Assembly: GCA_963777505.1 (NCBI GenBank) | Contig: CAVZQN010000012.1 | Location: 1-23,037 of the forward strand | DNA length: 23,037 nucleotides | Direction of reading: 5' to 3' | DNA from: an uncultured bacterium | Lineage (GTDB): Bacteria > Acidobacteriota > HRBIN11 > JAKEFK01 | Shown: piece by piece, positions 1-22,931 of the stretch | How positions within the stretch are numbered: the first letter of the stretch is position 1 | Layout of the letters: the number at the start of each line of letters is the position of its first letter | Notes under the pieces: generated by a model | Told to the model about the DNA's origin: nothing | The model's input: the letters and a program-made list of their open reading frames with translations, nothing else | The model's database searches: none | Program-made: the position numbers and the translations under genes

Positions 1-2
1 TT

Positions 3-677
3 CGCGGTTTAGTACGGATTCCGGATTCGGCTGGATCCGATACGCAATCAGCAGAAGACAAGATCCAAAAAAATCCTGTAGGTAATTCTCAGCAGGAAGC
101 CGCGTCGCCAAAGCTTCAACCTGAAGCCGCCAATTTACGTAAAGCTGAAGCAGGAATAACGGCGAATCAACTTCAATCGCAATTGCTCAACCAGACAAAC
201 AAAAAGATTTCTACAGGGACAACTCGTGCTACGAATCAAACACCAAAATCCGACGGCGCTGCTCTACAGAAGGCTCTCAAGATGTATGGGATTACGAATG
301 AGCAACTACAACGTTATGTTGCCACAGGTGAAGAGCCGGAAGGATTGAAGAAAGCTATAAGCGATGCAAGAACTAAAGGCGGATGGCCCGCGCTAAATAT
401 CGTTCGTGCAAGTTTTCAGAAGCGGGCGGAATACCTTCGAGCGAATAGCGGTCCGGATGATAGTAAAAGCCGCGCACAAGCAGATCAACTCGATGCAGAA
501 TCCGCGAGCCTCACGCGAAATCGGCAAGGGGTCCAACTGAAGCAGGCTAAGGATAGATTGGAATTAAGTAAAACCTCTACGCGTCCCGCTAACACTCAAA
601 ATCAAGTGACTCAAGCAACGATGGATATTGAAAACATAAGTGCTGAAATGGAGAAAATGATCAAACCGCGTAAGTAA
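3..677 (+). CDS. Hypothetical alpha-helical protein, 5'-partial, with disordered leader and shared N-terminal motif
   Basis: The frame of the listed 183..677 ORF is open back to base 3 (RGLVRIPDSAGSDTQSAEDKIQKNPVGNSQQEAASPKLQPEAANLRKAEAGITANQLQSQLLNQ...), so the true start is probably upstream of the window. No hydrophobic signal in the visible part; C-terminal half looks coiled-coil-like. Confidence 0.8.
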   Translation, partial: RGLVRIPDSAGSDTQSAEDKIQKNPVGNSQQEAASPKLQPEAANLRKAEAGITANQLQSQLLNQTNKKISTGTTRATNQTPKSDGAALQKALKMYGITNEQLQRYVATGEEPEGLKKAISDARTKGGWPALNIVRASFQKRAEYLRANSGPDDSKSRAQADQLDAESASLTRNRQGVQLKQAKDRLELSKTSTRPANTQNQVTQATMDIENISAEMEKMIKPRK

Positions 678-799
678 AAGTTGCTCCCCCCGTTGAATAT
701 CTATCGGTTTGAGATTCAGCGTTTCAAGTTGTTAGTGTATATTCCTACCGTGGTGAGACAGATAAAGCATTGGAATGGTTGGAACGCGCATACGTCCAA

Positions 800-852
800 C
801 GATCAGGACCCAAAATTCCTACCTATATATAGGTCGGTCAGAACGAGAAATC
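800..852. repeat. Short intergenic repeat (about 1.5 tandem units) with the palindrome ACCTATATATAGGT
   Basis: cgatcaggacccaaaattcctacctatatatagg (800-833) overlaps taggtcggtcagaacgagaaatc (830-852). Both resemble 10801-10842. Confidence 0.6.
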
Positions 853-982
853 TTATCACGCATCTCGCATCCGCATCTCAACTCTAAATGCCCTCGCCCT
901 GGCGTGTTTTTTTCCGGAAATACGTATTCATAACTAGAGGATTACTTATGGGTATAACGCCTGATGTTTTAGGGAGTGTGAA

Positions 983-2064
983 ATGAAAGTGTTTGTAATT
1001 TTGGTTGTTTCTCTTTGCTGTTTTTACTCAGGTTCTGTTTTCGCAATAGAGAATATACTTCTCTCGAGCAGCTACGACAGATAAGGAATTAATTCTCCTA
1101 AATGTTGAATACGAAAACAGGAAATTCAGGATTGTAGATCATGCCGTCTTCAAGCTGCCTTTTCAAGCTGGACTCACTGCTCTTGGCCGCTTACAAAATG
1201 GAAACTACCAGGTTGTTTGGACAGCTCAGGATGCGTCGAAAAAAATCAAAGTCCACAGCATGATATTTGATGCTGATCTTAACAAAATTGGAAATACCAA
1301 AAAGTTTGCGCCAATCCTCTCTTCCCATTTCAATTTGAATATTGTGAATTCGGATCCACAAACGCTCAAGACTGCAAAGGATGTCGATTCCTCTTTTGTA
1401 TCGTTAGAACGAAATAGTTCAGTTGTTTTGGTCGGACACAATGCTAACGGAACCTTCCGTCTCCCATACGATACATTGAATACTCCACCACCCGGTTTTA
1501 AAACGATTGATACTGCAATTACGGACTTTCTGACGCCGGCTACCGGCCCCTACTATGCCAACCTTGGTTACCTTGATTCGACAGGGGATAATGCGCTCCT
1601 GCTTGGCAATATCAATAACGAGAATTACACAACGGCTTTTGAATTTACTGGAGATGTTCTATCCATTGATCTGGTGGGCGACAGGAACAGATAATTTTAG
1701 CTTATTTGGTTGGGAGAAGTTGAACAACCCGGTACGATACCGAATATGGGAGCGCATTTTCAATGGTATTACTGGCCTGCCGGTCGAACGACAGAAAAAC
1801 ATACGGACAACCAAACCAGGAGATTTAGGAACACTCCCATCCTTTAATGGAGTTACTGCCGTACAGTCAAGCCAGTCGAGGGTACGTTTTCTATGGTGGA
1901 GCGAACCGGAACCTGGACTCATTGGAACCGATGTTTATGTCGCAAGCTTGGACGATGAAGCTAAAGAAAAAATAGTCCAACATTCAAATTTTGATATGAT
2001 CGGTTCGCCGAATTTTGTCCGATTCGAATACGCAATGGATTCTATTAACCTGGCAAGCGAGTGA
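983..2064 (+). CDS. Secreted hypothetical protein (about 360 aa), split by two +1 frameshifts
   Basis: RBS agggag at 971-976, ATG 983, signal peptide MKVFVILVVSLCCFYSGSVFA. Removing one base near 1067 joins it to the frame of the 1260..1694 ORF, which is open from 1050. Removing one G from ggg 1676-1678 joins it to the frame ending at 2064. Confidence 0.7.
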
Positions 2065-2187
2065 AATTCCAGTTTGCGGCGCCAGATCCTAAACCGTCCG
2101 CTATAATATGGAGGAGTTTCTACGAATACTTCCTGAACGAATCCGTACATTGCGCTAAAGGCTTCGACAGTTCCACTGAAAATTGGA

Positions 2188-3343
2188 ATGGTGAAGGCAA
2201 TCAATCCACGCATTGAAGTTCGCGGTAAAAGTATCGCTCGCACAACAACGCGTGACGGTGGTCTCGTATGGGCAGCAGTTTTCAATGCGGATAACGCAGG
2301 TGCGATCAGACTGCATGTGGAAAACATGTCGCTTCCTGCCGACACAAAAGTTTACCTGTACAGTAAGGATGGTCAGGCTTATGGTCCTTATACCGGAAAG
2401 GGTCCGAATCGTACAGGTGAATTCTGGACCGCCACTATTTTCGGTTCGGAAGCGATCTTGCAACTGCACATTTCATCTGCGGCAGCAAAGTCGAACTTGA
2501 GTAAAGTTTCGTTTCGGGTTCGGCAAGCAGGTTTGATTACGCGTCGATACGCAGGTGGATCGCAAGAGATTTTCAAACTCGTACCGAATGCACCCCTGGC
2601 GAACTGGCCGTGTGACAATATAAACTGCGTTGAGGATGCGACTTGCTACGGCGGTATCGCCGACACGCTGTCACTGGCAGTTGCAAAAATGGAGTGGCCA
2701 CAGGGCGCATTCCTCTACACTTGCACAGGTGGGCTTGATCAGTGACAACAATCCATCGCAGAACAACTTTTTCCTCACAGCGAATCATTGCGTTAGCAAA
2801 AACAACAATGCCAGGAACGTCAACTTCTACTGGCGATTCGCTACTTCGTCCTGTGAAGGGACTTGTCCAACGAATGGTGGATGGTCATTTCAAACGCAGG
2901 GTGCGACTGTCTCCGCGACAGGGAAAAAAGGAGACTTCTCGCTGCTTCATCTGAATTCTAATCCACCTGGTGGTTCCGTTTTTTTGGCATGGACCACAGC
3001 TCCGGTAGCGAACAGCAATGGAACCGATCTCTTTCGGGTCAGTAACCCGAATTTTGGTCCGCAGGTTTATTCAGAACACGATGTAGATACCAGTGCGTCT
3101 ACTTGTTCAGGCTGGCCCCGCGGACAGCGAATCTACACCCGGGATACGCTTGGTGCCATCGACGGTGGAAGCAGCGGTTCTCCGATCGTCAACAGCTCAA
3201 CGCAGATCGTAGGACAACTCAGCGGTACATGCGGAAGTAACCCAAACGATGCATGCTCCAGCGGGCCGGGTGAAGACAACGCTACCGTAGATGGCGCGTT
3301 AGCGTTTTACTTTTCATCCGTTCAACCGTTTCTCAATCCTTGA
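2188..3343 (+). CDS. Trypsin-like (S1) serine peptidase resembling the lysyl endopeptidase/Achromobacter protease I group; one frameshift, N-terminus apparently missing
   Basis: Removing one G from ggg 2731-2733 gives CTGGLISDNNPSQNNFFLTANHC. Triad motifs TANHC (His), GDFSLL (Asp) and GGSSGSP (Ser) are present. The pro-region resembles this family (AIRLHVENMSLP...VYLYS...GPYTG...FWT...I.G). Confidence 0.88.
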
Positions 3344-3351
3344 TCTTTTTA

Positions 3352-3384
3352 GAGCGCGGGCTTACAAAACCTAAGCCCGCGCTC
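3352..3384 (+). terminator. 13-bp perfect GC-rich hairpin (terminator or REP-like element)
   Basis: gagcgcgggctta-caaaacc-taagcccgcgctc, 8 nt after the protease stop. The U-tract is weak. Confidence 0.6.
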
Positions 3385-3973
3385 GTTCCTGCTACTGAAT
3401 TAGAGCTCGCAGTAAAAAACTACGATAAGAATCCGCGTATGATTCAGCAGCCTTGCGCGTATTTTCTGTTGCACTTGATATGACAAGTTCGAATGAATCA
3501 GGAATTTGACTTCTTTCGTTTATCCAAACGGAGCTTGCTCATTTCAAAAGACCTACTACTATCGCATCGTCACTCTGCCATCCGCAAAGAGATGGGTACC
3601 TATAAAGTTTGCGATCTGCAAAGTTGACGCCGCCATCCAATTCGGGGATCGGTACACGCGGTTGACACCTGTTTTGTATATATGATACGCTCGACTCAAC
3701 TCCAATTCACCTGATAAAAAACCGGTAACATCTTCTACAGTATTGATCTTCAGAACCGGTCATTAAGAATCGGTATTCGCTTTCCTCGTATCTTTGCGTA
3801 ACTGGCGCGTCAATTAAAGAACGTAAAGGCATCGGAACTGGGGCTGTTCCGAAAGAACTTTTGAACGTGCTTACGCACAGATCTACAATCCGGCTAAATC
3901 AAGCCCCTTAAGATTTAGTTCTAAAACAAACTGATTTGTTCTAAGCAAAGAACAAACATAAGTGGAGGCAACA

Positions 3974-5230
3974 GTGAAGAACCATTTTCCACTCTTCTCA
4001 ATTCTTTTCGTCTTCGTTTTTTTCGGCTGTATCGGGTTTACTCATAGTGATGCCGTCGAGGACTGGAACCTTTTCACAGCTCAAGCTAGTGCAACAGCAA
4101 CGGCTCCGCCTACGTCACGTCCAGGTCCCGCCTCGACACTTGATTTTGCGATGGTGCACATCGCCATACATGATTCAGTGCAAGCTTATGATGGACAATT
4201 TGAATCGTACTGTATTGATATTTCGAACGCGGACGGTTCACCGGTGGCTGCCATCGCCAAAGCCGCACATGATGTGCTTGTCAGCCGTTTTCCTGAACAA
4301 GCCGCAACACTGAATACCACATACAGCGACTATCTGGCCGACAACGATTTATTAGAAAGTGATCCTGGTGTGGTGGTCGGACAACAGGCTGCTGCATGCA
4401 TCATCGCACTGCGGGCTAACGATGGAAGCTACCCTAATCCGCCACCCGATCCATTTTTAGGTGGGATGGATCCAGGAGAGTGGCGTCCAACTCTTCCAGG
4501 ATTTGCACCCGGATTAATTCCGTGGCTGGGTGAAGTAACGCCATTTGCGCTGGATAGTACAGAGCAGTGCCATCCAGAACCTCCACCCGATCTAACAAGC
4601 AATCAGTACAAGAAGGATTACAAAGAAGTCAAGAAACTTGGGTCCGTGTCGAGTAACAGTCGCAGTGATAATGAAACGGACATGGCTAATTTCTGGTCGG
4701 CGAACATTATTCAAACCTGGAGCCTCGGTCTTCGTGATATCGCAACTGCGAATATCGACAACATTGGAGATAGCGCCCGATTATTTGCGCTAGTCTATAT
4801 CGCTAATGCGGACGCTGGAATCTGCGCTTGGGAGAGCAAATACTCATTCGTATTATGGCGTCCGATTACCGCCATTCAAGAAGGTGAGAACGATGGAAAC
4901 CCTAAGACCGACGGAGACCCAACCTGGTTGCCGCTATTAGCCACTCCACCCTATCCCGCCTACACATCCGGCGCAAATAATGTAAGTGGCTCTACGACTC
5001 GTATGTTGACCAACTTTTTCGCTACAAATCACATGAACTTTTCGTTGACGAGCACATTCCTGGGCGTGCAGAGAACGCGGGTGTACAACAAATTTTCAAA
5101 GCCAGCTGACGAAGTGGTCGATGCTCGTGTATTGCAGGGAATTCACTTCCGATTCGATGATACAACTGGCAGAAAACAAGGAGAAGGCGTAGCAGACTAC
5201 GTGTTTGAAAACTTCCTACGACCCCTCTGA
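3974..5230 (+). CDS. Secreted vanadium-dependent haloperoxidase / PAP2-superfamily protein
   Basis: GGAGG at 3964-3968 favours GTG 3974; a signal peptide precedes DAVEDWN. Motif 1 KYSFVLWRP (Kx6RP), motif 2 PAYTSGA (variant of PSGH), motif 3 ARVLQGIHFRFD (Rx5Hx3D). Confidence 0.9.
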   Translation: MKNHFPLFSILFVFVFFGCIGFTHSDAVEDWNLFTAQASATATAPPTSRPGPASTLDFAMVHIAIHDSVQAYDGQFESYCIDISNADGSPVAAIAKAAHDVLVSRFPEQAATLNTTYSDYLADNDLLESDPGVVVGQQAAACIIALRANDGSYPNPPPDPFLGGMDPGEWRPTLPGFAPGLIPWLGEVTPFALDSTEQCHPEPPPDLTSNQYKKDYKEVKKLGSVSSNSRSDNETDMANFWSANIIQTWSLGLRDIATANIDNIGDSARLFALVYIANADAGICAWESKYSFVLWRPITAIQEGENDGNPKTDGDPTWLPLLATPPYPAYTSGANNVSGSTTRMLTNFFATNHMNFSLTSTFLGVQRTRVYNKFSKPADEVVDARVLQGIHFRFDDTTGRKQGEGVADYVFENFLRPL

Positions 5231-5283
5231 TGACGACCGCTATGACAAGGACGACTGACGCTGTTCATCGCTAGCAATTACTA

Positions 5284-5311
5284 CAGGGCAGGTGACCATT
5301 GGCCTGCCCTG
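5284..5311. terminator. GC-rich hairpin downstream of the haloperoxidase (terminator or REP-like)
   Basis: cagggcagg-N10-cctgccctg, a 9-bp perfect stem with no U-tract. Confidence 0.4.
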
Positions 5312-5452
5312 AAGTCCCTGAACTGAAACGCTGATAGGAAAACGCGAATCGCGCAGCTCTTTTTTAAGCCACGCCGTTCGCTGCCAAAGCGCGGCGCTTG
5401 CGGCGGCTCTGTTAAACGACATTGGCCATCAAAAGGCGGATGTAAAAGCAAG

Positions 5453-5479
5453 AATTTGCCAAACGGCAAATTTTTGCCG
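5453..5479. promoter_or_regulatory. Candidate upstream activator sequence for a sigma54 enhancer-binding protein
   Basis: Overlapping palindromes AATTTGCC-aaac-GGCAAATT (5453-5472) and CGGCAAA-tt-TTTGCCG (5464-5479), 65-90 bp upstream of the -24 element. Confidence 0.5.
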
Positions 5480-5542
5480 ATTCGCAAAAAACAAAACGCA
5501 TTCTGATCTGATCGTATCCTCGAGATTCCCGCACAATGCTCT

Positions 5543-5558
5543 TGGCATAAGCGTTGCT
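5543..5558 (+). promoter_or_regulatory. sigma54 (RpoN) -24/-12 promoter
   Basis: TGGCATA-AGCG-TTGCT versus consensus TGGCACG-N4-TTGCW. GG 5544-5545 and GC 5556-5557 are separated by exactly 10 nt. The RBS aggagg and ATG 5587 follow. Confidence 0.8.
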
Positions 5559-5586
5559 TTAGTGTTGAACGCATCAGGAGGGAAAA

Positions 5587-6847
5587 ATGTTTAAGGTCGG
5601 AATCAATTCAGCACCACGGATTACAACGCCGGAAATAAACGAGACCGAGGAAACTCAGCAACAAAATGTGCAGGAGCAGATTGCGCCGCCGCAGGCAAAA
5701 CCAGTTTCGGCCGCAAATTCATCGATTCGAAGTGAAGCTATGTTTTCGACAATGGCTATGCGTTCACAGTTGACTCAACAGTTAGCTAACAACGAATCTA
5801 TGAAATCGAATCCTGAATCGCTTCAAAACATCGCACAAGTTGATCTGAAAGCGCCTTTAACGGAGAGTCAGGCAGATCAGCAAATCAATAACAAACCTGA
5901 ATACGATCAGCGAAAACCACTTACTGGTAGAGATCCATGGAATGGAGCTCTGTTGCCTAAGACCCTATTCACAGGTGATGGTGATGATCTCGTTGATATC
6001 CAGCAGAGTTCCGATGGAAGAGTTCATGTGAATGTAAATGGAAAGGAAGCATGGTCCGGGACAGTCAGACAATATCAGTCACTGACAATCAATACTGGCG
6101 CAGGAAACGATACTGTGAACATCCATAACATGAATTATTTGGTCGGTACTAAGCTTCAGACCGGGGATGGAAATGATGTAGTAAATAATCAGAGCTCGCT
6201 TACTTCGATCGATACAGGTGCGGGAAACGACACGGTCAACTCGAATGGAGACAATAATCAAATTAACACAGGCGATGGAAACGATATTGTAGAAATAACC
6301 GGAGACAATAACGAAATACAAACCGGAGACGGCGCTGATTGGGTTCGCCTGAACAGTGAGCGCTTTACGAATGGAGGAATTGACACTTACTCCGGTTACG
6401 CCAACCGCGTCGATACGGGAGCAGGAAATGATTCAGTGTTAGTCGAGGGACCAGTTAGGGGCAGACATTTCTACTGGTGACGGCGATGATTACGTTGACA
6501 ATAAAGGCAGTGGTTCCACTATTCAGACCGGCGATGGAAATGATTGGGTTGAAAATAGCGGAGATTACAGCAAAATCGAAACAGGCGGCGGAAACGATCG
6601 GATCAATCAGACATCCGGAGAAGGAACAACAATCAATCCAGGAGAAGGCTACGATCATGTTTACGTTAAGGAAAATCATGATGGATCGGACACTGGCGGT
6701 TATTGGATGAGAGATTCTTATACCGGACAGGATTACTGGGTGCGCAGTGAGGAAAATAGCGTGGCTCCAATCACAGTGGAAACAGATGGCAACGATGTTG
6801 TCTATAACAGCGATGATTCAAAAGTGATCGTTGATGATGAGAAGTAG
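5587..6847 (+). CDS. RTX-like calcium-binding beta-roll repeat protein with disordered N-terminal leader; one frameshift
   Basis: Repeats of x-TG[AD]G[ND]DxV, often with an 18-aa period (QTGDGNDVV, DTGAGNDTV, NTGDGNDIV, QTGDGADWV). Removing one G from gggg 6458-6461 continues the repeats (ISTGDGDDYV, QTGDGNDWV, ETGGGNDRI, NPGEGYDHV) to TAG 6845-6847. Confidence 0.82.
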
Positions 6848-6875
6848 GAAATGTTGCGTGCGAAAGAATTGAAAT

Positions 6876-6942
6876 CACCACAAAGAACAAAGGTCACAAA
6901 GGATTTATAAGATCAAGTAATATTTGTTCTTTGTGTCTTTGT
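6876..6942. repeat. Inverted repeat built from CACAAAG-like units (REP-like)
   Basis: caccacaaagaacaaaggtcacaaagg ... tttgttctttgtgtctttgt. Bases 6879-6891 are the exact reverse complement of 6923-6935. Confidence 0.6.
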
Positions 6943-7014
6943 CCTCCGTTCACTAGGTGAGTTGGATCGTCTTCCTTTAAGAGTAAACAAATTATGTAAC
7001 AGGAGGACAAAAAA

Positions 7015-8889
7015 ATGGGTGGCGGACCAATAGGCGATCCAACAACAAAACCTATAACCCGAACGGATTCTGGCAATGTCGGGGCAACCCAGGATAAACA
7101 ACCAATCACAACCCCACCACCGCCGTCGAAACCTGCGGACGACCCTGCAGTAACCGCAAAAACTTCAACAGCCTTGAAACAGCAAGGAACCGAAACAAAA
7201 AGTCAGCTTCAGATATCAGGACAACTGGTTCAGCAAAACTTGAATAACGCCCTACCGGCCGGAGCGAAACCACAAGCCGCGGTCTTTGACGGACCCGGAA
7301 TGGATCTGAAAAATGTCGTTGTTAGAAACTTTGATAAACCAATCGAAGCTGCAGCTCATGTAATGAAATATGAAAATACCGACCCGGCTCATGCGTCGCT
7401 TCAGTTTCATGAATTAGTTTCCAAACACAAAGATGATCCGAAATATCTGAAGGAATTTTTCGGAGCAATTGGCGGTGACAAGAGCAAAGAACTAATCGCA
7501 CGATCTCACAATTTCCTGTACATCAGCCGTCCCAATAACTCAAAAGCGGATGTTGATAAATATACAGGAGGTGTGCGAGATGCTATTCATACGCTGCATA
7601 AATCTGGCGATCTCACATCATCGGACGTCCAGGGCATAGTGCATGCTGCAAACGCTCAGGGAGTGGATACTCTAGCAAAACTTTCTACGTCCATTTCGAA
7701 TCTTCCTGAAGCAGAAAACTTGAAGAAGTCGTTTGCTGAAAACAATATGCAGCTTTATCAAACCTATCAGTGGAATGCTACAGCGAAAGCGGCTTATGCT
7801 ACGTCAGCTGCGGAATTGATGGGGAAAACTACCACCGAAGATCAACTGAAATTCATGAGCAAGCTGAGTAAGGAAAACAAGCTTGACTCATTTGTTAAAG
7901 ATGCGACTTCTTATCAACCTCAGTCGGTTTATGAAGCCTCTTCCACGTATGAAGGACGAAAAGCAGAAGCCACTCAACAACCAACAGGTGTCGCTAATCT
8001 TGTCAATACTACCTACATAGCAAGTCACGGAGATGCGCGTGATCGGTCACTCCCGATTAATGTTAAAGAGTTGGAAGACCTTCGGCTAAACATGTTCCAA
8101 TCAGCAGCAGACGTGTACTCTGACGCTAAACGGATCCCAATCTGGTCTAAAAGCACGGACATGAAAGATGCCTTATCCGGAATTTTCCAGGATGATTTCG
8201 ATAAGATTTGGAAATCTGGACTTGCACAAAATAAGGCGGTATTTGATGACGAAAGCGACAACCCACACAGGTCGGCAATTCAGCCGAAACTGGAAGGGTT
8301 TTTCCAGCATGCTCTGTTTTCTGAACCTACAGGCCAGTATCGTGATGAGACGAGTAAATTTCTTGCAGGAAAAATGAACGGTTGGATGGCCGACATCAAC
8401 GATTCAAAAATGTCAAAACAAGCTTTCTCTGCGAAATACGGAATGGAACGGACTCAACTCACGCACATCATGGGCGAAACCATGGGCTTTGTTAACAATG
8501 GAATGCAGACTGCAGTTAAGAGTGCGAAAGATCGCAAGGCTTCGAATGAAGCCGGATTAAAGTGGATGATGGATCTTGGATTCAGCTTATTGCCGGGAGG
8601 GGGCATTCCTAAGAAGATGCTTGGAATCGAAGGCGCGGAAACGATTTCCAAAATCGTTGCAGGTGTTCATGAAAAAGCGAAGGGTGCGTTGAAAGATATG
8701 ACCAAAGATGAAGCCGTGAAATATTTGCTGAAAGAATATCCGGGTTTGCGCTCGGATAAAATCATGGAGGAACTCTTTCAGGAACTGCGGGAAGTAGTGC
8801 CAGGTAGCGATGGTCAGGATCTTTTATCTGCGCTTCAAAGTTCTTACACACAAATAGATTTGCACCCCAAAATTCCTGGTGGCGTTTAA
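7015..8889 (+). CDS. Hypothetical 624-aa alpha-helical protein with Pro/Thr-rich leader and shared N-terminal motif
   Basis: Long intact ORF with RBS aggagg at 7001-7006. No Sec signal and no recognisable catalytic motif. Confidence 0.85.
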   Translation: MGGGPIGDPTTKPITRTDSGNVGATQDKQPITTPPPPSKPADDPAVTAKTSTALKQQGTETKSQLQISGQLVQQNLNNALPAGAKPQAAVFDGPGMDLKNVVVRNFDKPIEAAAHVMKYENTDPAHASLQFHELVSKHKDDPKYLKEFFGAIGGDKSKELIARSHNFLYISRPNNSKADVDKYTGGVRDAIHTLHKSGDLTSSDVQGIVHAANAQGVDTLAKLSTSISNLPEAENLKKSFAENNMQLYQTYQWNATAKAAYATSAAELMGKTTTEDQLKFMSKLSKENKLDSFVKDATSYQPQSVYEASSTYEGRKAEATQQPTGVANLVNTTYIASHGDARDRSLPINVKELEDLRLNMFQSAADVYSDAKRIPIWSKSTDMKDALSGIFQDDFDKIWKSGLAQNKAVFDDESDNPHRSAIQPKLEGFFQHALFSEPTGQYRDETSKFLAGKMNGWMADINDSKMSKQAFSAKYGMERTQLTHIMGETMGFVNNGMQTAVKSAKDRKASNEAGLKWMMDLGFSLLPGGGIPKKMLGIEGAETISKIVAGVHEKAKGALKDMTKDEAVKYLLKEYPGLRSDKIMEELFQELREVVPGSDGQDLLSALQSSYTQIDLHPKIPGGV

Positions 8890-8902
8890 TAAGGCTATTC
8901 GT

Positions 8903-8974
8903 GGCTTAGCGTTTTTCCGTTAAGCCCCTTGAAGTTCCGGAGACTGGCAAGGGCGACGTTTTGATCGCCCTTGC
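8903..8974 (+). terminator. Two consecutive hairpins after the 624-aa gene
   Basis: ggcttagcg-tttttc-cgttaagcc (8903-8926) and gcaagggcga-N8-tcgcccttgc (8947-8974). Confidence 0.5.
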
Positions 8975-9001
8975 TGCAACGCTAAATTTCCATCGGCTCT
9001 A

Positions 9002-9143
9002 ATGACGGTGCAATTATTAGCGGTCAGTCCAATGGATCCATTAACCTATCTTGCTGTGCATTAATTTTTCTCTTAGCTGCTACATTTGCGAGTTTCATTT
9101 CTGCACTTCGCTCCTCATCTTTTTCATCCAGCAGAGGTTTTGA
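9002..9143 (+). pseudogene. 3'-end relic of an ABC permease paralogous to 20265..22931
   Basis: Aligns by hand to 22779-22920 at about 83% identity (22 substitutions, 2 single-base indels). Encodes ...QLLAVSPMDPLTYLA...HPAEVL. Confidence 0.85.
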
Positions 9144-9182
9144 TAAAGAGCAGGTTAGGGACTTACAATTATAATTACAACT

Positions 9183-10392
9183 ATGAAACGTTCAGGATTT
9201 GCAGATTTGCCGCTTCATGGAGGGCGTGTGCCTTCGTGGCTTGCGGATCGCATGACGAAACTTGGTACCGCAATAACGGAAGCGATCGTGATGGAGTATG
9301 GCCGTTCTGAGTTTCTATCTCGACTCTCCGATCCCATTCTGGTTCCAGGCGTTAGGATCCGTAATGGGCATGGATTGGCATTCCTCAGGAATTACTACAT
9401 CGGTTATGGGGGCGCTCAAGCGCGGATTGAACATGCGTGCGAAAGAATTGGGGATTTATATTTGTGGAGGCCGCGGCCGGCATTCGCGCCGGACTCCTGA
9501 TGAATTGCGAATTGTTGCAGACAGGATTTCCCTGGATGGTGAGGCGTTGGTGCGCACTAGTCGTTTAACAGCGAGAGTTGACAACAATGCAATTCAGGAT
9601 GGCTTTCAGCTTTATCTCCACAATTTTGTCGCAACTGCAGATGGAGAATGGGCAGTGGTTCAACAGGGAATGAATGGAGCGACTGGTCTTGCGCGGCGCT
9701 ATCACTGGCACTCGCCATCCGTACGCGATTTTACTTCTGAACCTCATTGCGGAATTGTCGGTGAGCATCAAGGCATGATTCTGAATCTTGTCGATAATCA
9801 GGCCAAGCCTGCACAAGCAGCGCTTCTGGAAATCATCAAGCAGCAACCTGAAAAAAGCTTGCATCAAGCAAGAGAATTAGTTGTCCCTCGCCATCATGAT
9901 GTCCGCGCTCAGGATGTAAACCTGAAGCGACTCGGTGCAGTGCTCGCAATGGCTTACGAAAGTGACTTCAGAGACTTCGCGTCATTTCTGCTTCTAGAAA
10001 AATTGGGTCCACGTACGTTGCAATCTCTCGCACTCATTGCTGAAGTTGTGCATGGCACACCGACTCGCTTCTCCGATCCGGCGCGTTTCTCTTTTGCACA
10101 TGGTGGAAAAGATGGTCATCCATTTCCGGTTCCGCTCAAAACGTATGACAGATCGATTGAAGTGCTTCGTTGTTCGCTGGATGCGGCAAAGTTAGGTGAT
10201 AAAGAAAAACTCGAAGGATTCCGCCGCCTCGAACAATTCACTCGCAACATCGAAACCGTATGTCAGCCCGAAGCCGATTTTGATGCGCTGATTGCTCACG
10301 AACATCAGATCTCCCCATCCCTTGATGGCCGCACAGTATTTGATGACAAAAGATCAAAAAAACCTCGCTCAAAACAATTGCCCCTTTTTTAA
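9183..10392 (+). CDS. DUF763 domain-containing protein; one frameshift
   Basis: [14 protein letters not shown]...RM joins [20 protein letters not shown] after removing one C from ccc 9333-9335. Also [29 protein letters not shown] and [19 protein letters not shown]. Confidence 0.9.
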
Positions 10393-14762: not shown

Positions 14763-14870
14763 GTCGTCTTTTGTTTATCACACTCATACGGCGTGATCTT
14801 AAAACTGTTTCCTTTTCCCTTTTTCCGCTACAATAAAAACCTACTGTCAAACGTATTCATGGAGTTTTAA

Positions 14871-17800
14871 GTGACAGAATCCCGTGAAGATCCTGAGCCT
14901 CCCGAATCCAATGATTCCGTCGATTCCAGCACTTCCCAACTTTTGACTCTCGATTCAGGTGCAGACGCCGAGGTAAAAGGCGACGGCCACTTTCAATTCC
15001 CAAAACATATTGGTCATTATGATATTGATGCTGTTTTAGGTTCTGGCGGAATGGGACAGGTTTTCAAAGGTTATGATCCAAAACTCAAACGGTTCGCAGC
15101 ATTAAAGATATTGCGTGCTGAAACTCCTCAATTGAATCGCCGTTTTGCTCAGGAAGCAAGATTACAAGCAAGAATTGATCACCCCAATGTTTGTAAAGTG
15201 TATGAAGTAGGGGAGGTCGATGGAAAGCATTTTATTGCAATGCAATATATCGCTGGCAAAACTTTGCGCGATGCAGCGACAGAATTAAAACTTGAAGAAA
15301 AGCTCCGGATCATCAAGCAAGTTGCGGAGGCGTTGCATTCTGCGCATAAAGAAGGGCTTATTCACCGGGACATCAAACCATCCAACATCATGGTGGTAAA
15401 AACTGAAGAAGGAATCTGGCAGCCCTATATTCTGGATTTCGGTTTAGCGCGGGAGCAAGAAGCTGCCGGTTTAACACTTTCAGGAGTTGTTGTTGGAACC
15501 CCGCACTATATGGCTCCGGAACAAGCTCGCGGGGATACGACTCATCTTGATCGCAGGACAGATGTCTACGGTCTTGGAGCTACATTGTATGAATTGCTCT
15601 CAGGTCAAACACCCTATCCTGGCAAAAGTTCCGCTGACGTTTTGATCAGGGTGTTGCAAGAAGATCCTGTTCCAATTAGAAAAATCGATCGTAATATTCC
15701 GATCGATCTTGAAACGATTGTGATGAAGTGCATGCAAAAGGAGCCTCATCTCCGTTATGAATCTGCTAAAGAATTGTACGAAGATCTTCAAAGGTATTTG
15801 GATGGCGATCCGATTTCAGCCAGGCCGATACGTTTTTCAGAACGCCTGATTAAAAAAGCAAAGAAAAATAAAGTAGCTGCAGTAAGCATCGCCGGCGCTT
15901 TACTGATCACTTTGGTTCTTATTAGCGCTTTAGTCTGGGTGCAAACAAAGTCCAGCATTCAATCAAAGTATGCAAGAGAGTTCGGTGAGGAAGTTCGAAG
16001 TATTGAATCGATGATGTTAAGCGTTTATTCAGCTCCAATCCATGATATTAGATCGGAATCAGCTGTAGCCAAAAAGCGTCTTTCCAAAATTGAAAATCGA
16101 ACCAGGGAAGCTGGTAGTTGGGCATATGGTCCGGGACATAATGCGCTGGGGTTGGGATATTTCGCTATCGGTGACTACGATAAAGCATTTCAAAATCTGG
16201 AAATTGCGTGGCAATCTAATTATCGTGAACCATCAACGATCTACACTCTTGGGAAGCTGTATGGAATCCGTTATCAACGTGAATTAGCCGAAGCAGCATC
16301 CATTAAGAACAAAGTACTTCGTGATGAGCAATTTGCGAAAATCGAGAAAGAGCTTCGTGATCCTGCCGTTGAATATTTGAAGATGTCGAAAACGAGCATT
16401 GATTCGCCTGCGTATGCGGAAGGACTCATTGCATTTTATGAGAAGCGATACAGTGATGCGCTAAAAAATGCCATTGAAGCTTACAAACAAGCCGGTTGGT
16501 CTTACGATGCGAAAAAACTGGAAGGAGATCTTTATCAATCAAGAGCGAGTGAACTTGAAGATAAGGGTGACTCTGAAGAAGCTGCAAAGAATTTGGATGC
16601 TGCGGCCGCCGCCAATCGGATCGCCATCGAATTAGGTAGAAGTAGAGCAGAAATCTACTTGAACGAAGCTTCCAGATGGACTGAAATTCTGATTCGCGAT
16701 ACTGAGAAGGGAAAGACCAATCAAACTGCTTTCGATCAGGGACTTCATTTTGCGGATCAAGCAATCGCGATTAATCCGGAAGCTCCGGAAGGATACGCTC
16801 GCGGCTCAAAAATCTATACAAGTGCAGGAAACTATTTGATGTACAACACCGGTGAAGATCCGCGGAAGATGATGGAACAGGCAATTCAGATGGGTGAGCA
16901 ATTGCAGAAATTAAGTCCGCGATATCCTATCGCATTCTCTGAATCCGGAATTGCATACAGATTGATTGGCGAGTATGAGCTTCGACATGGAATGGATCCA
17001 CGAAATTCGTTGGCTAAATCGATAGATCTTCTTGGAAAATCGGTTCAGATTAAGCCAGGGTTTTCACCATATTTAGGAGCACTTGGCGTTGCGTATTCAC
17101 TTCTTGCGGAATATGAACTGAAACACGGAAAAGATCCACGTCCTACATTTCAGAAAGCGATTCAACAATATCGAACCTCTGAACAAATAAATCCTAAGTA
17201 CACCCAGGCCTTTATAAATGCTGGAATCGCATACTGGTTCATTGCGTCTTATGAAGGGTCACGCGGCTTAGATCCAACATCTGCTTTTCAAAATGCAATT
17301 GAACAGTATCAAATGGCCATCACAGCGAATCCAAAAAATGCCTTTGCCTTATTCAATCTGAGTCTTGCATACATGGAGGCGGGTAATTTTGAGCTTGTTT
17401 CGGGACGTGATCCCACTAAGTCTTATGCACAATGTCTTGATGTTTTGAAGAAATGTGCAGAGTTAATGAACAATTCATACGTTCCAACTGCATTCGGCAG
17501 TATTTTCTATCAGATGGCAAATTTACGAGTTTCAAAAAGGAAATGATCCGACATCTTTACTTGAACAATCGCGCAATTCTTATCAGAAATCGATTGAAAT
17601 AGATTCTTCTAATTATGAGCCATTCGGATTTTTAGGGCGTGATGAAACTCTTGCCGCGCGCTGGACCATAAAATTGGACATTCTCCGAGTACCCTGTTCA
17701 AATGGGCGCGCAAAAATTTCCAAAAAGCCATCGAGTTGAATAAAGAAGAACCTACCGTCTATCAGCTCTATGCCGATTTGTTGCGTAGGGAAGCTGAATG

Positions 17801-18072
17801 GCTTCAATCCCAAAAACGATCTGCAAGTGAACCGATTTCCACGGGTTGCAGATCGTCAAAAAAAATCTCGATCTTGATCTACATCGTCCGAAGCTTACGC
17901 TCTGGAAGGAACGTTTTATCTCTTGAAGGCAGAAGAACAAACAGATAAAGACATGCGATCCAATTTGATCGCCAAAAGTAAACTTTCTTTGGAGTATGCC
18001 TTGAAATTGAATCGCTGGCTGAAAAAGGAATATCAGCCGGTTCTGGAAAAAGCGAATAAAAGCCTGGAATGA
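14871..18072 (+). CDS. Membrane-anchored Hanks-type Ser/Thr protein kinase with C-terminal TPR-like repeats; four frameshifts in the last 550 bp
   Basis: LGSGGMGQV, ALK, HRDIKPSN, DFG, GTPHYMAPE and DVYGLG; TM segment AAVSIAGALLITLVLISALVWV. The repeats continue past the 17546 stop after indel correction near 17523, 17672, 17845 and 17880, ending ...EKANKSLE-TGA 18072. Confidence 0.9.
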
Positions 18073-18082
18073 GGCGAACCGT

Positions 18083-18111
18083 ACCACGAAGGTTACGAAG
18101 AGCACGAAGAG
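18083..18111. repeat. Three 9-bp units (ACGAAG core), single arm of a REP-like element
   Basis: accacgaaggttacgaagagcacgaagag, 10 nt after the reconstructed kinase stop. Similar to the left arm at 6876-6902. Confidence 0.5.
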
Positions 18112-18488
18112 CGCTACACCAATATTAACGTCAAACGTTATTGCTCACATTTTAAAACGAACTGACAACACGTACGCTGGGGACTATTCATTGATCGCGT
18201 ACTATTTTCACAGAAGTTATCTAAGGAAACTCTTCTAATATTTTAGCTCTATTTACATTCTTATGATTTTAGGTTATTATTTGAACTAACTTATAATTGG
18301 TAAAAGCTTAAGTGTCTTTAAGCCGCATTCATTTGAAGGATTAATCGTAGACTCAAGAATCGCTGAAGAAGCTCCAAACGGATATTTCACAATCCCTCCC
18401 GGACCCTGCTAAGTACTACGTCTTCAACTTTCAAATAGAGTTCGTGATCTATAGATGGATTACGAAGAAACAAAGGAGATAGAGTAAT

Positions 18489-18998
18489 ATGCTTTCAAAA
18501 ATTGATAAGGCCAAAAAACAAAAAGAGCTGCTTTCTAAAATTGCGGCCGACATTAATGAAGATGTGCGAGCCAAAGCTGTAAAGCTCGATCAAGGAAATT
18601 ATCCTGGTTACCTACCTTCAACCTGGTATTCCTTGTTTCAAAAACAATTTCTTCGCCACACCGGCGAAAGAGAAGTAGAAATGTTTTTTTTAAGCCCGAG
18701 TGGTTGGCTTAAAGGACTCCAACTCAATGGTGCGTTAAAGAAAGAAACCGAATTCATAGCACGGCTTAAAACAGTTTGCGTTACATTGAGAAAATTGGCG
18801 AATGAGAAAAACGCAGGAAATGTGCGATTCCTTGGGGAAATAGCTGCAGAGGCCAAAGTGCCAGCGGCGTGGCTGGCGAATGTAATCGATTCTGAATCAA
18901 TTGAATACAGGTTTAATAAGATCGGAATCGCATGGTTGAATGAAAAGGATAATTCTGTTCTTATTCCATCGAATGTGGGACTGAAGAAATCAGCTTAA
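18489..18998 (+). CDS. Hypothetical protein, possibly the surviving 3' part of a decayed longer gene
   Basis: 169-codon ORF. The same frame upstream reads LKD*S*TQESLKKLQTDISQSLPDPAKYYVFNFQIEFVIYRWITKKQRR*SN. The region is AT-rich. Confidence 0.55.
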   Translation: MLSKIDKAKKQKELLSKIAADINEDVRAKAVKLDQGNYPGYLPSTWYSLFQKQFLRHTGEREVEMFFLSPSGWLKGLQLNGALKKETEFIARLKTVCVTLRKLANEKNAGNVRFLGEIAAEAKVPAAWLANVIDSESIEYRFNKIGIAWLNEKDNSVLIPSNVGLKKSA

Positions 18999-19028
18999 AC
19001 TGATGACTCAGCTCCTTACCTTCTTCAG

Positions 19029-20268: not shown

Positions 20269-22931
20269 AGGGATGGCTTCAAAGATTAAAACGGCTTCAC
20301 CGGCGAAGCGAACTCGAACAAGGACTCGCAGAGGAAATTCAGTTCCATATAGAAAAACAATCTGAGAAGAATGTGAAAGCTGGCATGCAACCGGATGAAG
20401 CGCGCAGGCAGGCAATGATTCAGTTTGGTGGAATTGAGCAATTCAAGGAGTCTACACGCGATCAGTTTCGTTCCGCATGGCTCGAAAATTTCGTCCGCGA
20501 TTTGCGTCATGGAGTGCGCGCTCTGCGGCGAACTCCAGGGTTTACGTTCGTTGTAATCTTTACGCTTGCAATCAGCATCGGCGCCATCACTGCGATGTTC
20601 AGTGTACTGAATGGAGTTGTGCTGCGTCCGTTGCCATATCCGCAACAGGACCGGCTGATTGAACTTGTACACGAAGCTCCACGTTTTGGTTTAAACGAAC
20701 TGTTCGCATCACCAGCCATCTATTTTTCTTATCGCGACTACAACAAAACATTCGATTCAATCGGATTGTGGGATTGGGATGATTCGCCGGTAACTGTGAC
20801 CGGGTCTGGATCACCGGAAGCGATCCAGAGCGTAGAAGTGACACACGAAATTCTTCCGATGCTTGGAGGCAATCCGATCCGTGGTCGAACCTTTAGTGAA
20901 ACTGATGATCTTGCTGGAAGCGAACCAACGGTAATTATTTCCTATGCATACTGGCAGCGTAGATTTGGTGGAGTGGATCCGCTGGGGCAAACGCTGATTG
21001 TTGATGGAATTCCCCGCGTGGTAATTGGAGTGCTGCCGCAAAACTTTCAATTCTTTGATTACGCCGCTGACCTTTTCTACCCAAGACAACCCGTACGATC
21101 GGAAGCTTCGTTTCCATCCTTTGATGGACGCGCGATTGCAAAACTAAAACCTGGCGTCACTCTGGAGCAGGCAAACGCCGATGTTCAGCGCATGATTCCA
21201 CTGCTGGAAGAAGAATTCGGGCAGAATGTACAGCCATGGAAGATGAAACCAAAATTGAGATTGCTCAAAGAAACAGTCGTAGGAAATCTGGATGATACGT
21301 TATGGATTTTGATGGGAACGATCGGACTCCTGTTGTTGATTGCATGCGCGAATGTTTCGAACCTGGTGCTCGTGCGTACTCAATCGAAGCAGGGAGAACT
21401 GGCCGTTCGAAGAGCACTTGGCGCCGATTCGATTGCGGTCGCAAGAGTTGTGTTTGCTGAAAACATCATCCTGGGTCTTGCGGGCGGAGCAGCCGGTATT
21501 GTAGTTGCCTATTTCAGTTTGCCGTTTCTGCTTTTATTAGGTGAAAGCGATTTGCCTCAAATTATGAATGTAAAGATCGATCCTGTCGTTTTGCTTGCAG
21601 CTCTGGGTATATCCGCGATCACAATTTTTCTGGTTGCGCTTCCATCAGTGATCCATTTTGCGCGACCACGAAATCAACTCGCCCAGGCTTTGGGATCTGG
21701 CGCGCGATCGTTCACTGAAGGACGTGAAGTGAACTGGGTCAGGCAAATTCTGCTGGTCACCCAGGTTGCGCTCGCACTCGTGCTGCTCATCGGCTCAGGA
21801 TTAATGATTCAAACCTTCATGAGATTGCGCCAGGTGGATCCGGGCTTCAACGATCCACAGCACGTGCTTACATTTCAACTAACGATTCCGGTAAAGGCTG
21901 AAGTTGAGTCTGATGAAGCTGAACTGCGCGAACGGCTTCTTCGAATGCAGCATGCGATCGTGGATCAGCTTGCCGCGATTCCCGGTGTGCAATCAGCAGC
22001 TTTTTCTGCGTTTAGTGATGGACTTCCACTGGATGGAGACGGACGTCAACACGGACTTTGCATTGAAACAAAAGCTCAGATTGAATGCGGAGAATCCATG
22101 AAAGAAGTGCAATCAGTTTCGCCAGGCTTTTTTGAAACGACAAAAACTGCGCTCGTTGCCGGACGTTTGTTTGATTGGGACGATGTGCATCAGCCCAGGG
22201 AGGTTGTTTTACTTTCTGAAAATCTCGCGCGAGCGGAATGGGGATCAGCGCAGGCCGCGTTAGGAAAACGGGTGAGTAATTCCCAAACCGGACCGTGGCG
22301 CGAAGTAGTGGGCGTTGTCAAAGACGTTCATCATAATGCCTTAAGTCAACCTGCGCCGCAGACCATAATTTATCCGGCTGTAGCAGCGGACACTGCAACA
22401 TTTGTCATTCGAACCAATCGCACTGGCACGGCCGGTTTTCTGGAGGAAGTTCGAAAAGCGGTGTGGTCTGTGAATGCGAATCTTTCACTTGCAAAAGTGC
22501 AAACTCTCGGTGATCTTCATCAACGTTCTATGGCTCGAACTGATATGACAATGCAATTACTTGCGATTACTGGCGCAATCGCCTTCATGCTGGGACTTGT
22601 AGGGATTTACGGAGTGGTTAGCTACACAATTTCGCAGCGGCGCCGTGAGATCGGGATCCGCCTTGCTCTTGGAGCCGGGCAGGGTCAGATCAGACGGATG
22701 TTTGTTCGACGCGCGTTGATGAATGTAATGATCGGGGTTGTAATCGGGCTCGTTGCTGCTGCCGGTCTAACCCGCATGATGATGTCGCAATTATTCGGTG
22801 TTAGTCCAATGGATCCGTTGACCTATCTTGCTGTTGCATTACTCGTGCTTTTAGCTGCTGCATTTGCCAGCTTCATTTCCGCACTTCGCGCTTCATCGTT
22901 TCATCCAGCAGAAGTTTTGAAAGCTGCCTGA
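20265..22931 (+). CDS. MacB/FtsX-like duplicated ABC permease (ADOP type: permease prefix + 2x MacB_PCD/FtsX), no fused ATPase
   Basis: Prefix EEIQFHIE...GM...EARRQA...FGG; DLRHGVRALRRTPGF; LLIACANVSNL; ELAVRRALGA; QRRREIGIRLALGA; LFGVSPMDP. Confidence 0.95.
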   Translation: MKGWLQRLKRLHRRSELEQGLAEEIQFHIEKQSEKNVKAGMQPDEARRQAMIQFGGIEQFKESTRDQFRSAWLENFVRDLRHGVRALRRTPGFTFVVIFTLAISIGAITAMFSVLNGVVLRPLPYPQQDRLIELVHEAPRFGLNELFASPAIYFSYRDYNKTFDSIGLWDWDDSPVTVTGSGSPEAIQSVEVTHEILPMLGGNPIRGRTFSETDDLAGSEPTVIISYAYWQRRFGGVDPLGQTLIVDGIPRVVIGVLPQNFQFFDYAADLFYPRQPVRSEASFPSFDGRAIAKLKPGVTLEQANADVQRMIPLLEEEFGQNVQPWKMKPKLRLLKETVVGNLDDTLWILMGTIGLLLLIACANVSNLVLVRTQSKQGELAVRRALGADSIAVARVVFAENIILGLAGGAAGIVVAYFSLPFLLLLGESDLPQIMNVKIDPVVLLAALGISAITIFLVALPSVIHFARPRNQLAQALGSGARSFTEGREVNWVRQILLVTQVALALVLLIGSGLMIQTFMRLRQVDPGFNDPQHVLTFQLTIPVKAEVESDEAELRERLLRMQHAIVDQLAAIPGVQSAAFSAFSDGLPLDGDGRQHGLCIETKAQIECGESMKEVQSVSPGFFETTKTALVAGRLFDWDDVHQPREVVLLSENLARAEWGSAQAALGKRVSNSQTGPWREVVGVVKDVHHNALSQPAPQTIIYPAVAADTATFVIRTNRTGTAGFLEEVRKAVWSVNANLSLAKVQTLGDLHQRSMARTDMTMQLLAITGAIAFMLGLVGIYGVVSYTISQRRREIGIRLALGAGQGQIRRMFVRRALMNVMIGVVIGLVAAAGLTRMMMSQLFGVSPMDPLTYLAVALLVLLAAAFASFISALRASSFHPAEVLKAA

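Follow-up and report, generated by a model that had tools for sequence, protein, structure and literature searches.

The window analyzed here, a stretch of 23,037 nucleotides, is the whole of contig C12 (CAVZQN010000012.1) of GCA_963777505.1 (G000), a 5.23-Mb assembly of an uncultured soil member of the Acidobacteriota that comprises 14 contigs, has a GC content of 44%, and is 95.9% complete. Three of its genes encode proteins, P0001, P0002, and P0003, that share an N-terminal leader and carry different bodies behind it (Table 1). An earlier note, made from the sequence of the window, had aligned a 19-residue string from each protein and read it as a secretion or chaperone-binding signal shared by a dispersed family of export substrates. 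The translations of the three genes contain these strings at the residues that the note gave, a P/Q/T/S/E-rich stretch precedes each of them, and all three proteins are without a hydrophobic 19-mer, in agreement with the claim that none has a Sec signal. The leader recurs in at least 29 distinct genes of the assembly, with the three copies of the window locus counted once, and it may be an export module of a type III secretion system (T3SS).

Table 1. Leader-bearing genes of the window, with their leader elements and promoter
Feature	Position (nt)	Strand	Remarks
P0001, small leader-bearing protein	3..677	+	5'-cut by the contig start; full form of 231 aa in the C7 and C13 copies
P0001 leader helix region	111..215	+	A2 match, E 1.4e-5; 19-residue motif at nt 141-197, residue 47 of the 5'-open frame
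Sigma-54-type promoter TGGCAY-N5-TTGCH	5543..5558	+	Ends 28 nt upstream of the P0002 ATG
P0002, leader and RTX-like Ca-binding repeat body	5587..6480	+	297 aa, frameshifted; second frame 6443-6844
P0002 N-terminal cap M-F-K-V-G-I-N-S	5587..5610	+	GGAGG-type Shine-Dalgarno sequence just upstream
P0002 leader helix region	5698..5805	+	A2 match, E 5.2e-8; 19-residue motif at nt 5728-5784, residue 48
P0003, leader and large helical body of unknown family	7015..8889	+	
P0003 leader helix region	7168..7272	+	A2 match, E 5.4e-7; 19-residue motif at nt 7198-7254, residue 62

The window locus is present three times in G000, on C12 (positions 1 to 9175 and 14780 to 19011), on C13, and on C7 (positions 170701 to 184407), in mosaic blocks of 92 to 99.7% nucleotide identity. 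The earlier note needs correction on two of the three genes: P0001 is incomplete at the contig start, and P0002 is frameshifted, near positions 6440 to 6480, relative to the C13 copy, which is intact at 419 amino acids (the C7 copy of P0002 lacks the start region in the open reading frame [ORF] call). A Pfam scan returned no match in P0001 or P0003 and only a sub-threshold RTX repeat in P0002, while an NCBIfam search with the intact P0002 copy gave a weak calcium-binding-repeat match. Homologs of P0003 form only two clusters among 5.8 billion proteins, and the P0003 body yielded only a lead, at 0.92, to DUF6571/TPR_23 clusters in the ESM Atlas. P0005, the only distant homolog of P0003, is 35% identical to it, and the motif region stands out between the two as a conserved island in a divergent leader. 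Similarly, cap and helix are nearly unchanged in P0002 orthologs from metagenomes.

The leader has three parts: a short N-terminal cap, a spacer of 45 to 61 residues rich in P, T, S, Q, and E, and an amphipathic helix. The cap, M-x(0-3)-[KR]-[IV]-x-[GS], was found in 12 of 26 members compared to 62 of 2,195 background genes (2.8%). Within the spacer, P, T, S, and Q are enriched about two- to threefold and E and A about 1.5-fold, and L, F, R, and G are depleted. A third conserved element, a Glu at about residue 20 to 25 that is usually followed by T, V, or I, is visible in the alignment of full leaders (A6). The helix follows the consensus [KR]-[AS]-E-x-x-[ILM]-x-G-Q-x-[RK]-x-x-x-L-x-x-x-[LIV], often with a Pro behind it, and falls at about residues 45 to 80. 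Its distance from the start codon is constrained; the motif begins 45 to 61 residues after an ATG with a GGAGG-type Shine-Dalgarno sequence in 25 of 26 G000 genes, and 48 to 68 residues after the Met in 17 of 20 loci of related genomes, the remaining three ORFs being truncated. Family members are without a Sec signal or transmembrane segment: a hydrophobic 19-mer was absent from all 26 members (maximum Kyte-Doolittle score, 1.44), compared to scores above 1.6 in the first 70 residues of 32% of genes. This is the layout expected of T3SS substrates, whose N terminus is disordered and not cleaved, with a conserved segment behind it in the first ~100 residues.

The I-x-G-Q core of the helix raised the possibility of a double-glycine leader (ending in GG or GA) as processed by peptidase-containing ABC transporters (PCAT). 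Judged from the leader only, with no search made for a C39 exporter, this seems a poor fit: residues stay conserved for another 11 positions after the Gly, and Glu and Ile are spaced differently from the consensus for such leaders. About 10 further genes, which we call class B to set them apart from the helix-bearing class A, have the cap and spacer with the helix replaced by G-[IV]-x(3-5)-D-[SGTL]-F-[EDK] at about residues 35 to 50. One class B gene, with the cap M-Q-I-K-K and a D-S-F-E motif near residue 37, lies beside the P0003 copy on both C13 (positions 7912 to 8424, minus strand) and C7 (position 177172, plus strand); in the window, a DUF763 insertion takes its place.

Taken by themselves, the three strings are weak evidence for a family, with pairwise identities of 4 to 6 of 19 residues. 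The regular expression of the earlier note matched nine times, always in the three genes and their copies; a looser version added a paralog on C9, and a hidden Markov model (HMM) of the three strings plus this paralog found nothing further above reversed decoys (next best E value, 0.41, versus 1.4 for the decoy). Searches with phmmer using the N-terminal 100 residues produced a web of weak reciprocal matches to other ORFs, none of which lay beyond the first ~120 residues of the ORF matched. Family candidates were first picked by eye from their N termini, and four tests were then applied. An initial scan with a position-specific scoring matrix (PSSM) was overfitted and was replaced by a leave-one-group-out test, which used 16 of the 20 candidates (four with unclear register were dropped) and a background of 8,792 other ORFs of at least 100 amino acids. 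Ten members, when left out, ranked 2, 8, 1, 1, 11, 3, 10, 1, 23, and 1 among these ORFs, with P0001 at 2, P0002 at 8, and P0003 at 1, and in each of these three the best site was where it was expected; six weaker members ranked between 122 and 1,348. The best site was the expected one in 14 of 16 members and was off by 1 to 2 residues in the two whose register had been set by hand. Upon iteration, the PSSM placed 25 ORFs above the best reversed-decoy score (21.6) and 39 above the fifth-best, and the looser regular expression had no match in any of 20 shuffles. A motif-blind screen for ORFs with a Shine-Dalgarno-preceded ATG and polar, non-hydrophobic residues 9 to 45 returned 49 of 2,310 ORFs, most of which show the same design when read by eye.

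We built profiles of the motif region (A2; 36 columns from 25 regions) and of the full leader (A6). In the fourth test, A2 matched 35 times in G000 (29 distinct genes), 21 times in G001, which belongs to the same genus, and, in a second genus, 13 times in G003 and twice in G005; there was no match at an E value of ≤0.1 in 27 other related genomes. A6 matched 31 times in G001 and 15 times in G003, with no match in G002, G004, or G006. Among 1.84 billion representative proteins, A6 matched 23 at an E value of ≤0.001. In 19 of these, the alignment spans the whole profile and starts at residue 1 or 2; among the other four is a repetitive protein of 4,127 amino acids that is probably spurious. Matches are thus N-terminal and in proteins without a signal peptide, as the earlier note had predicted. 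The leader family is rare and lineage restricted, and our literature searches, including those for N-terminal secretion signals in Acidobacteria, found no description of this leader. The proposal of a dispersed family with a portable tag on variable cargo is therefore borne out by N-terminal matches in two genera, while secretion itself is something we infer.

Among the bodies of 28 members that we scanned, seven have a PG_binding_1 (peptidoglycan-binding) domain directly after the leader, one of these with annexin repeats as well. One other member gave a weak alpha/beta-hydrolase match, P0002 has its RTX-like repeats, and the rest had no match. A small gene is translationally coupled to two of the peptidoglycan-binding leader proteins on C3 of G000 (L007:7234-7656 and L008:7768-8199) and has 28 homolog clusters in metagenomes. 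A model built from 28 sequences (pLDDT, 75.4) has an NTR/TIMP-like OB fold (Foldseek template modeling [TM] score, 0.59; E value, 2.7e-5), while a model from 2 sequences was poor (pLDDT, 55.6). This fold is not that of a class I (CesT/SycE) chaperone, and the model suggests that the product may be an inhibitor or immunity-like partner. Such a partner would in turn suggest that the peptidoglycan-binding cargo is enzymatically active and potentially self-harmful. Directly 3' of two other peptidoglycan-binding leader genes are genes with a formylglycine-generating-enzyme (FGE-sulfatase-like) fold (L010:5201-6025 and L024:5048-6058, on C3 and C7). Domains typical of eukaryotes also occur near or in the family on C7 and C6, namely, a calpain-type C2 peptidase, an ankyrin-repeat protein with five Ank_2 stretches, and the annexin repeats of one leader protein (L002:6231-7451, L060:4628-5710, and L021:6138-7103).

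A strict sigma-54 consensus lies 39 to 49 nucleotides upstream of the ATG in 6 of 28 members, including P0002, where 0.011 sites are expected per 250 nucleotides; orthologs in G001 and G005 also have a site of this kind. The neighborhoods of eight members contain sigma-54 activators (some of them with FHA-GAF domains) or response regulators. In addition, 11 of 24 members have a Ser/Thr kinase ORF no more than 6 kb away, compared to 24% at random, in a genome with 113 kinase ORFs.

A candidate export apparatus is widespread in the lineage. Of 31 relatives, 12 have a SctV that scores above the curated injectisome cutoff, and the class, which has 12 genomes besides G000, accounts for 10 of these; flagellar controls stayed below the cutoff. 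An eleventh genome of the class, G009, has a SctV fragment at a contig end. PF00771 (FHIPEP) was likewise found in five of the six other genomes of the taxonomic family. In G001, the genes form a complete and compact cluster at about 88 to 110 kb of its contig C3 (L079 and L080). There, SctV, SctR, SctN, and SctL match over curated cutoffs, SctU, SctT, SctS, SctJ, and SctQ are best matches below the cutoff, and the cluster also contains genes for YscO-like, FliK/SctP-like (ruler-like), and FliA-like sigma factor proteins and three SycD-like proteins made of tetratricopeptide repeats (TPRs). No rod, hook, or Mot family was detected among the 43 cluster ORFs scanned, and the cluster is that of an injectisome-type, non-flagellar T3SS. 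It includes no secretin; G001, G002, and G003 each have three secretin genes, which lie at other sites without exception. Several small proteins of the cluster that we presume to be substrates have N termini similar to the cap and to the class B motif; examples are a 125-amino-acid ORF (L079:19597-19974) and the ruler-like ORF (L079:14736-15545).

Small all-TPR genes are found in G000 as well, as six paralogs of 126 to 160 amino acids, of which one is decayed. In NCBIfam, the family that matches them best over the full length is LcrH_SycD (TIGR02552), that of the class II T3SS chaperones, which bind short peptide sites of the P-x-L-x-x-P type in translocators. They are 31 to 46% identical to the three TPR genes of the G001 cluster (two of them 37 to 46%), and three of the six have a leader gene no more than 5 kb away, for which the random expectation is 6.6%. 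A profile of the small TPR proteins (A3) matched all 13 SctV-bearing genomes at E values of ≤5e-28, compared to 17 SctV-negative genomes in which the only matches had E values of ≥2e-17 and were all in ORFs of at least 295 amino acids. Small TPR genes adjoin sctV in G001, G002, G003, G004, G005, and G028. G000 is the single genome with small TPR chaperone genes and without SctV; G006, which belongs to the genus of G003 and G005 and is 73% complete, is without SctV, strong TPR matches, and leader matches together. These proteins resemble SycD/LcrH, PcrH, IpgC, and SicA in being small (~150 amino acids) and all-TPR, in having TIGR02552 as their best full-length family, in lying in the T3SS cluster of relatives, and in co-occurring with SctV. 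They differ in scoring below the curated cutoff, in forming sets of 5 to 12 paralogs, some beside leader genes outside the cluster, and in their presumed ligand, which would be a 20-residue amphipathic helix rather than a P-x-L-x-x-P peptide. The type III analogy drawn in the earlier note thus gains from a non-flagellar T3SS in relatives, including one of the same genus, and from SycD/LcrH-like TPR genes that adjoin some family genes.

We propose, with a probability of about one half, that the leader is a module for T3SS export and docking that has undergone reassortment. We favor this reading because the layout is substrate-like, the cargo is shuffled, a T3SS is present in the lineage, and chaperone-type genes are scattered among the leader genes. 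The window proteins would then be part of a lineage-specific repertoire of signal-peptide-less proteins with a modular leader (at least 29 genes of class A and about 10 of class B). The leader would act as a non-cleaved export signal plus a docking or chaperone-binding segment for the non-flagellar T3SS that is near-universal in this acidobacterial class, and terminal reassortment would have attached it to unrelated cargo domains, with many leader genes probably driven by sigma-54 promoters. We infer that the T3SS or its chaperones recognize the leader and that the apparatus is still present in this organism, as we do the final location of the cargo proteins. Concerning that location, peptidoglycan-binding cargo fits export to the periplasm or to other bacteria better than injection into eukaryotes. 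A more specific possibility, which we offer tentatively and regard as doubtful, is that this class exports a large sigma-54-controlled repertoire through a Myxococcus-like T3SS without a secretin in its cluster, into its own periplasm or into neighboring bacteria, and that the repertoire is recognized through the three-part leader and an enlarged set of SycD-like chaperones. The proteins so exported would include peptidoglycan-binding, calcium-binding, and hydrolytic ones, some of them paired with inhibitor-like partners.

Several observations weigh against a type III role. The earlier note's expectation that an export apparatus would co-occur in the same genome was not borne out, as the assembly contains no core gene of a T3SS, flagellum, contractile injection system, type VI secretion system (T6SS), or type IV secretion system (T4SS). 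Family searches of the 95.9%-complete assembly found neither PF00771 (FlhA/SctV) nor PF01312 (FlhB/SctU), and none of the core Sct genes turned up in G000 when 65 proteins of the G001 region served as tblastn queries. The two genomes share only five syntenic blocks, of 75 to 82% nucleotide identity, in 284 kb, and because synteny is this weak, loss of the T3SS cannot be separated from a gap in assembly or binning. The leader is missing from the T3SS-positive genomes of the sister genus, G002 and G004, with both A2 and A6, and eight SctV-bearing genomes outside the taxonomic family f1 (G007 to G012, G021, and G028) have no leader match either. The leader is therefore no general requirement of this T3SS. 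Within G001, the T3SS cluster includes no A6 match, its loci have no strict sigma-54 site, and the two TPR genes outside it do not adjoin leader genes. As for the TPR proteins, two from G000 score 62.6 and 69.8 bits and the G001 cluster copy scores 81.7, below the 104.8-bit cutoff of TIGR02552, and the PDB sequences that match the TPR proteins best belong to generic or designed TPRs. Lastly, peptidoglycan-binding domains are unusual for effectors injected into eukaryotes.

Some of these points would be expected if the leader addressed a different and so far unrecognized route of export or sorting (vesicles, an ABC exporter, or a route linked to Tad or to type II secretion, for instance) and the association with a T3SS were coincidental: G000 has the full leader repertoire and no T3SS in the assembly, and T3SS-positive sister genomes are without the leader. 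We think this unlikely, since no candidate apparatus recurs beside members, either in a clustering of their neighborhoods or in a Pfam scan of 84 ORFs in the first ~97 kb of contig C7, which found no secretion apparatus. Contractile-injection, T6SS, and T4SS candidates were rejected for G000 on the absence of PF04984 (sheath), PF04965 (gp25/TssE), PF05943 (TssC), and PF03135 (VirB4). PF10722, the lead to a YbjN/CesT-type chaperone, is absent from G000 too, and the sole secretion-type genes near leader genes are those of T3SS-type chaperones.

The regulatory neighbors described above raise the alternative that the leader is a docking or substrate module of a signaling network of Ser/Thr kinases, FHA proteins, and sigma-54, not an export signal. 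The helix would dock on kinase TPR domains or other TPR proteins, the spacer, rich in Thr and Ser, would be phosphorylated, and the proteins would be intracellular. Kinase ORFs near 11 of 24 members, activators or response regulators in eight neighborhoods, and a spacer rich in T, S, and P are all in keeping with this. However, the kinase enrichment is only about twofold in a kinase-rich genome, the small TPR family follows SctV and not kinases, and PG_binding_1, annexin, and RTX-like calcium-binding cargo point outside the cytoplasm. A role in signaling would also leave the strict position at the very N terminus unexplained, and we consider it quite unlikely.

In alignments, the helix has a heptad-like hydrophobic face, and in two cases the motif follows another domain (C4:1737230 and C7:126457, the latter with a peptidoglycan-binding domain first), both of which would suit an inherited structural module of disordered segment plus helix, used in oligomerization, tethering, or autoinhibition, with no targeting function. 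The fixed distance from Met-1, the conserved cap, and confinement to the N terminus in 19 of 23 database matches are instead properties of a signal, and the leader sits on cargo of unrelated folds, so that a purely structural module strikes us as distinctly improbable. Chance similarity of Q-rich amphipathic helices, as might be suspected from three strings so dissimilar and from an HMM that found nothing new, is hardly credible in view of the leave-one-out ranks, the decoy comparisons, the N-terminal confinement, and 27 of 31 related genomes without a match.

The copies of the window locus differ in their insertions, and C12 and C13 are small contigs; the three copies could be strain variants co-binned in one metagenome-assembled genome or a real triplication. 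A search of genome contigs for related loci returned one, L093, at 87% identity. The DUF763 gene of the window (positions 9183 to 10392) is missing from the C13 and C7 copies and consists of two overlapping frames (9183 to 9500 and 9298 to 10392), which suggests a frameshift. A direct repeat of 143 nucleotides (83% identity) is found at positions 9002 to 9143, just 3' of P0003, and at 22779 to 22920. The latter unit is at the 3' end of an ADOP-type MacB/FtsX permease gene, the same piece is present in C13 and C7, and the repeat may be a remnant of a permease gene. Upstream of P0002, positions 1260 to 3343 hold short overlapping ORFs with fragments of M28 and trypsin-like peptidases, a stretch that has the appearance of decayed genes and is only partly common to the C7 and C13 copies.

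Modular N termini on diverse cargo are known from several secretion systems. Payloads of extracellular contractile injection systems have a disordered N-terminal leader of ~50 amino acids on diverse cargo, and marker motifs are known for the T6SS. The present leader is similar in being disordered, N-terminal, and attached to diverse cargo, and unlike them in that G000 is without PF04984, PF04965, and PF05943. A group of Salmonella SPI-2 effectors shares the N-terminal translocation motif 'WEK(I/M)xxFF'. Terminal reassortment of type III effectors (Stavrinides 2006) and conserved signal families are treated in PMC7406222. The likeness lies in one N-terminal module on unrelated C-terminal domains in many dispersed genes, and the module is likewise useful for finding the repertoire. 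The motif here is a different one, however, with a tripartite layout of fixed length, and belongs to an uncultured acidobacterial host, with sigma-54 promoters, peptidoglycan-binding cargo, and a T3SS cluster in relatives that is without a secretin. For the apparatus, the closest parallel is the Myxococcales-type non-flagellar T3SS without a secretin that is described by Abby and Rocha 2012 (PMC3459982); in Myxococcus xanthus, a 'needleless T3SS*' is reported to act with the Kil Tad system (PMC12075869). In both cases the host is a free-living bacterium of soils and the T3SS cluster is without a secretin gene. Points of difference from the Myxococcales system are the acidobacterial SctV score, which is above the injectisome equivalog cutoff, and the presence of genes for a FliK/SctP ruler-like and a YscO-like protein. 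What is new compared to that system is a candidate substrate repertoire with a readable leader.

T3SS signals usually cannot be read from sequence, and to our knowledge, the substrates of non-flagellar T3SSs in free-living, non-pathogenic phyla are essentially unknown. Here, in two genera, a simple profile of cap, fixed spacer, and helix identifies candidate substrates, dozens of them per genome, and the question of export by an acidobacterial, Myxococcus-like T3SS thereby becomes directly testable. The family is also an unusually clear example of terminal reassortment of what would be a secretion module, and through it, candidates for type III export are connected with regulation by sigma-54 and Ser/Thr kinases in a phylum that is dominant in soils. 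If type III export to the periplasm or to neighboring bacteria is indeed its function, the leader would be the first defined substrate signal, and its genes the first defined repertoire, for a T3SS of ancestral type, and would point to a use of type III secretion that is not directed at eukaryotes.

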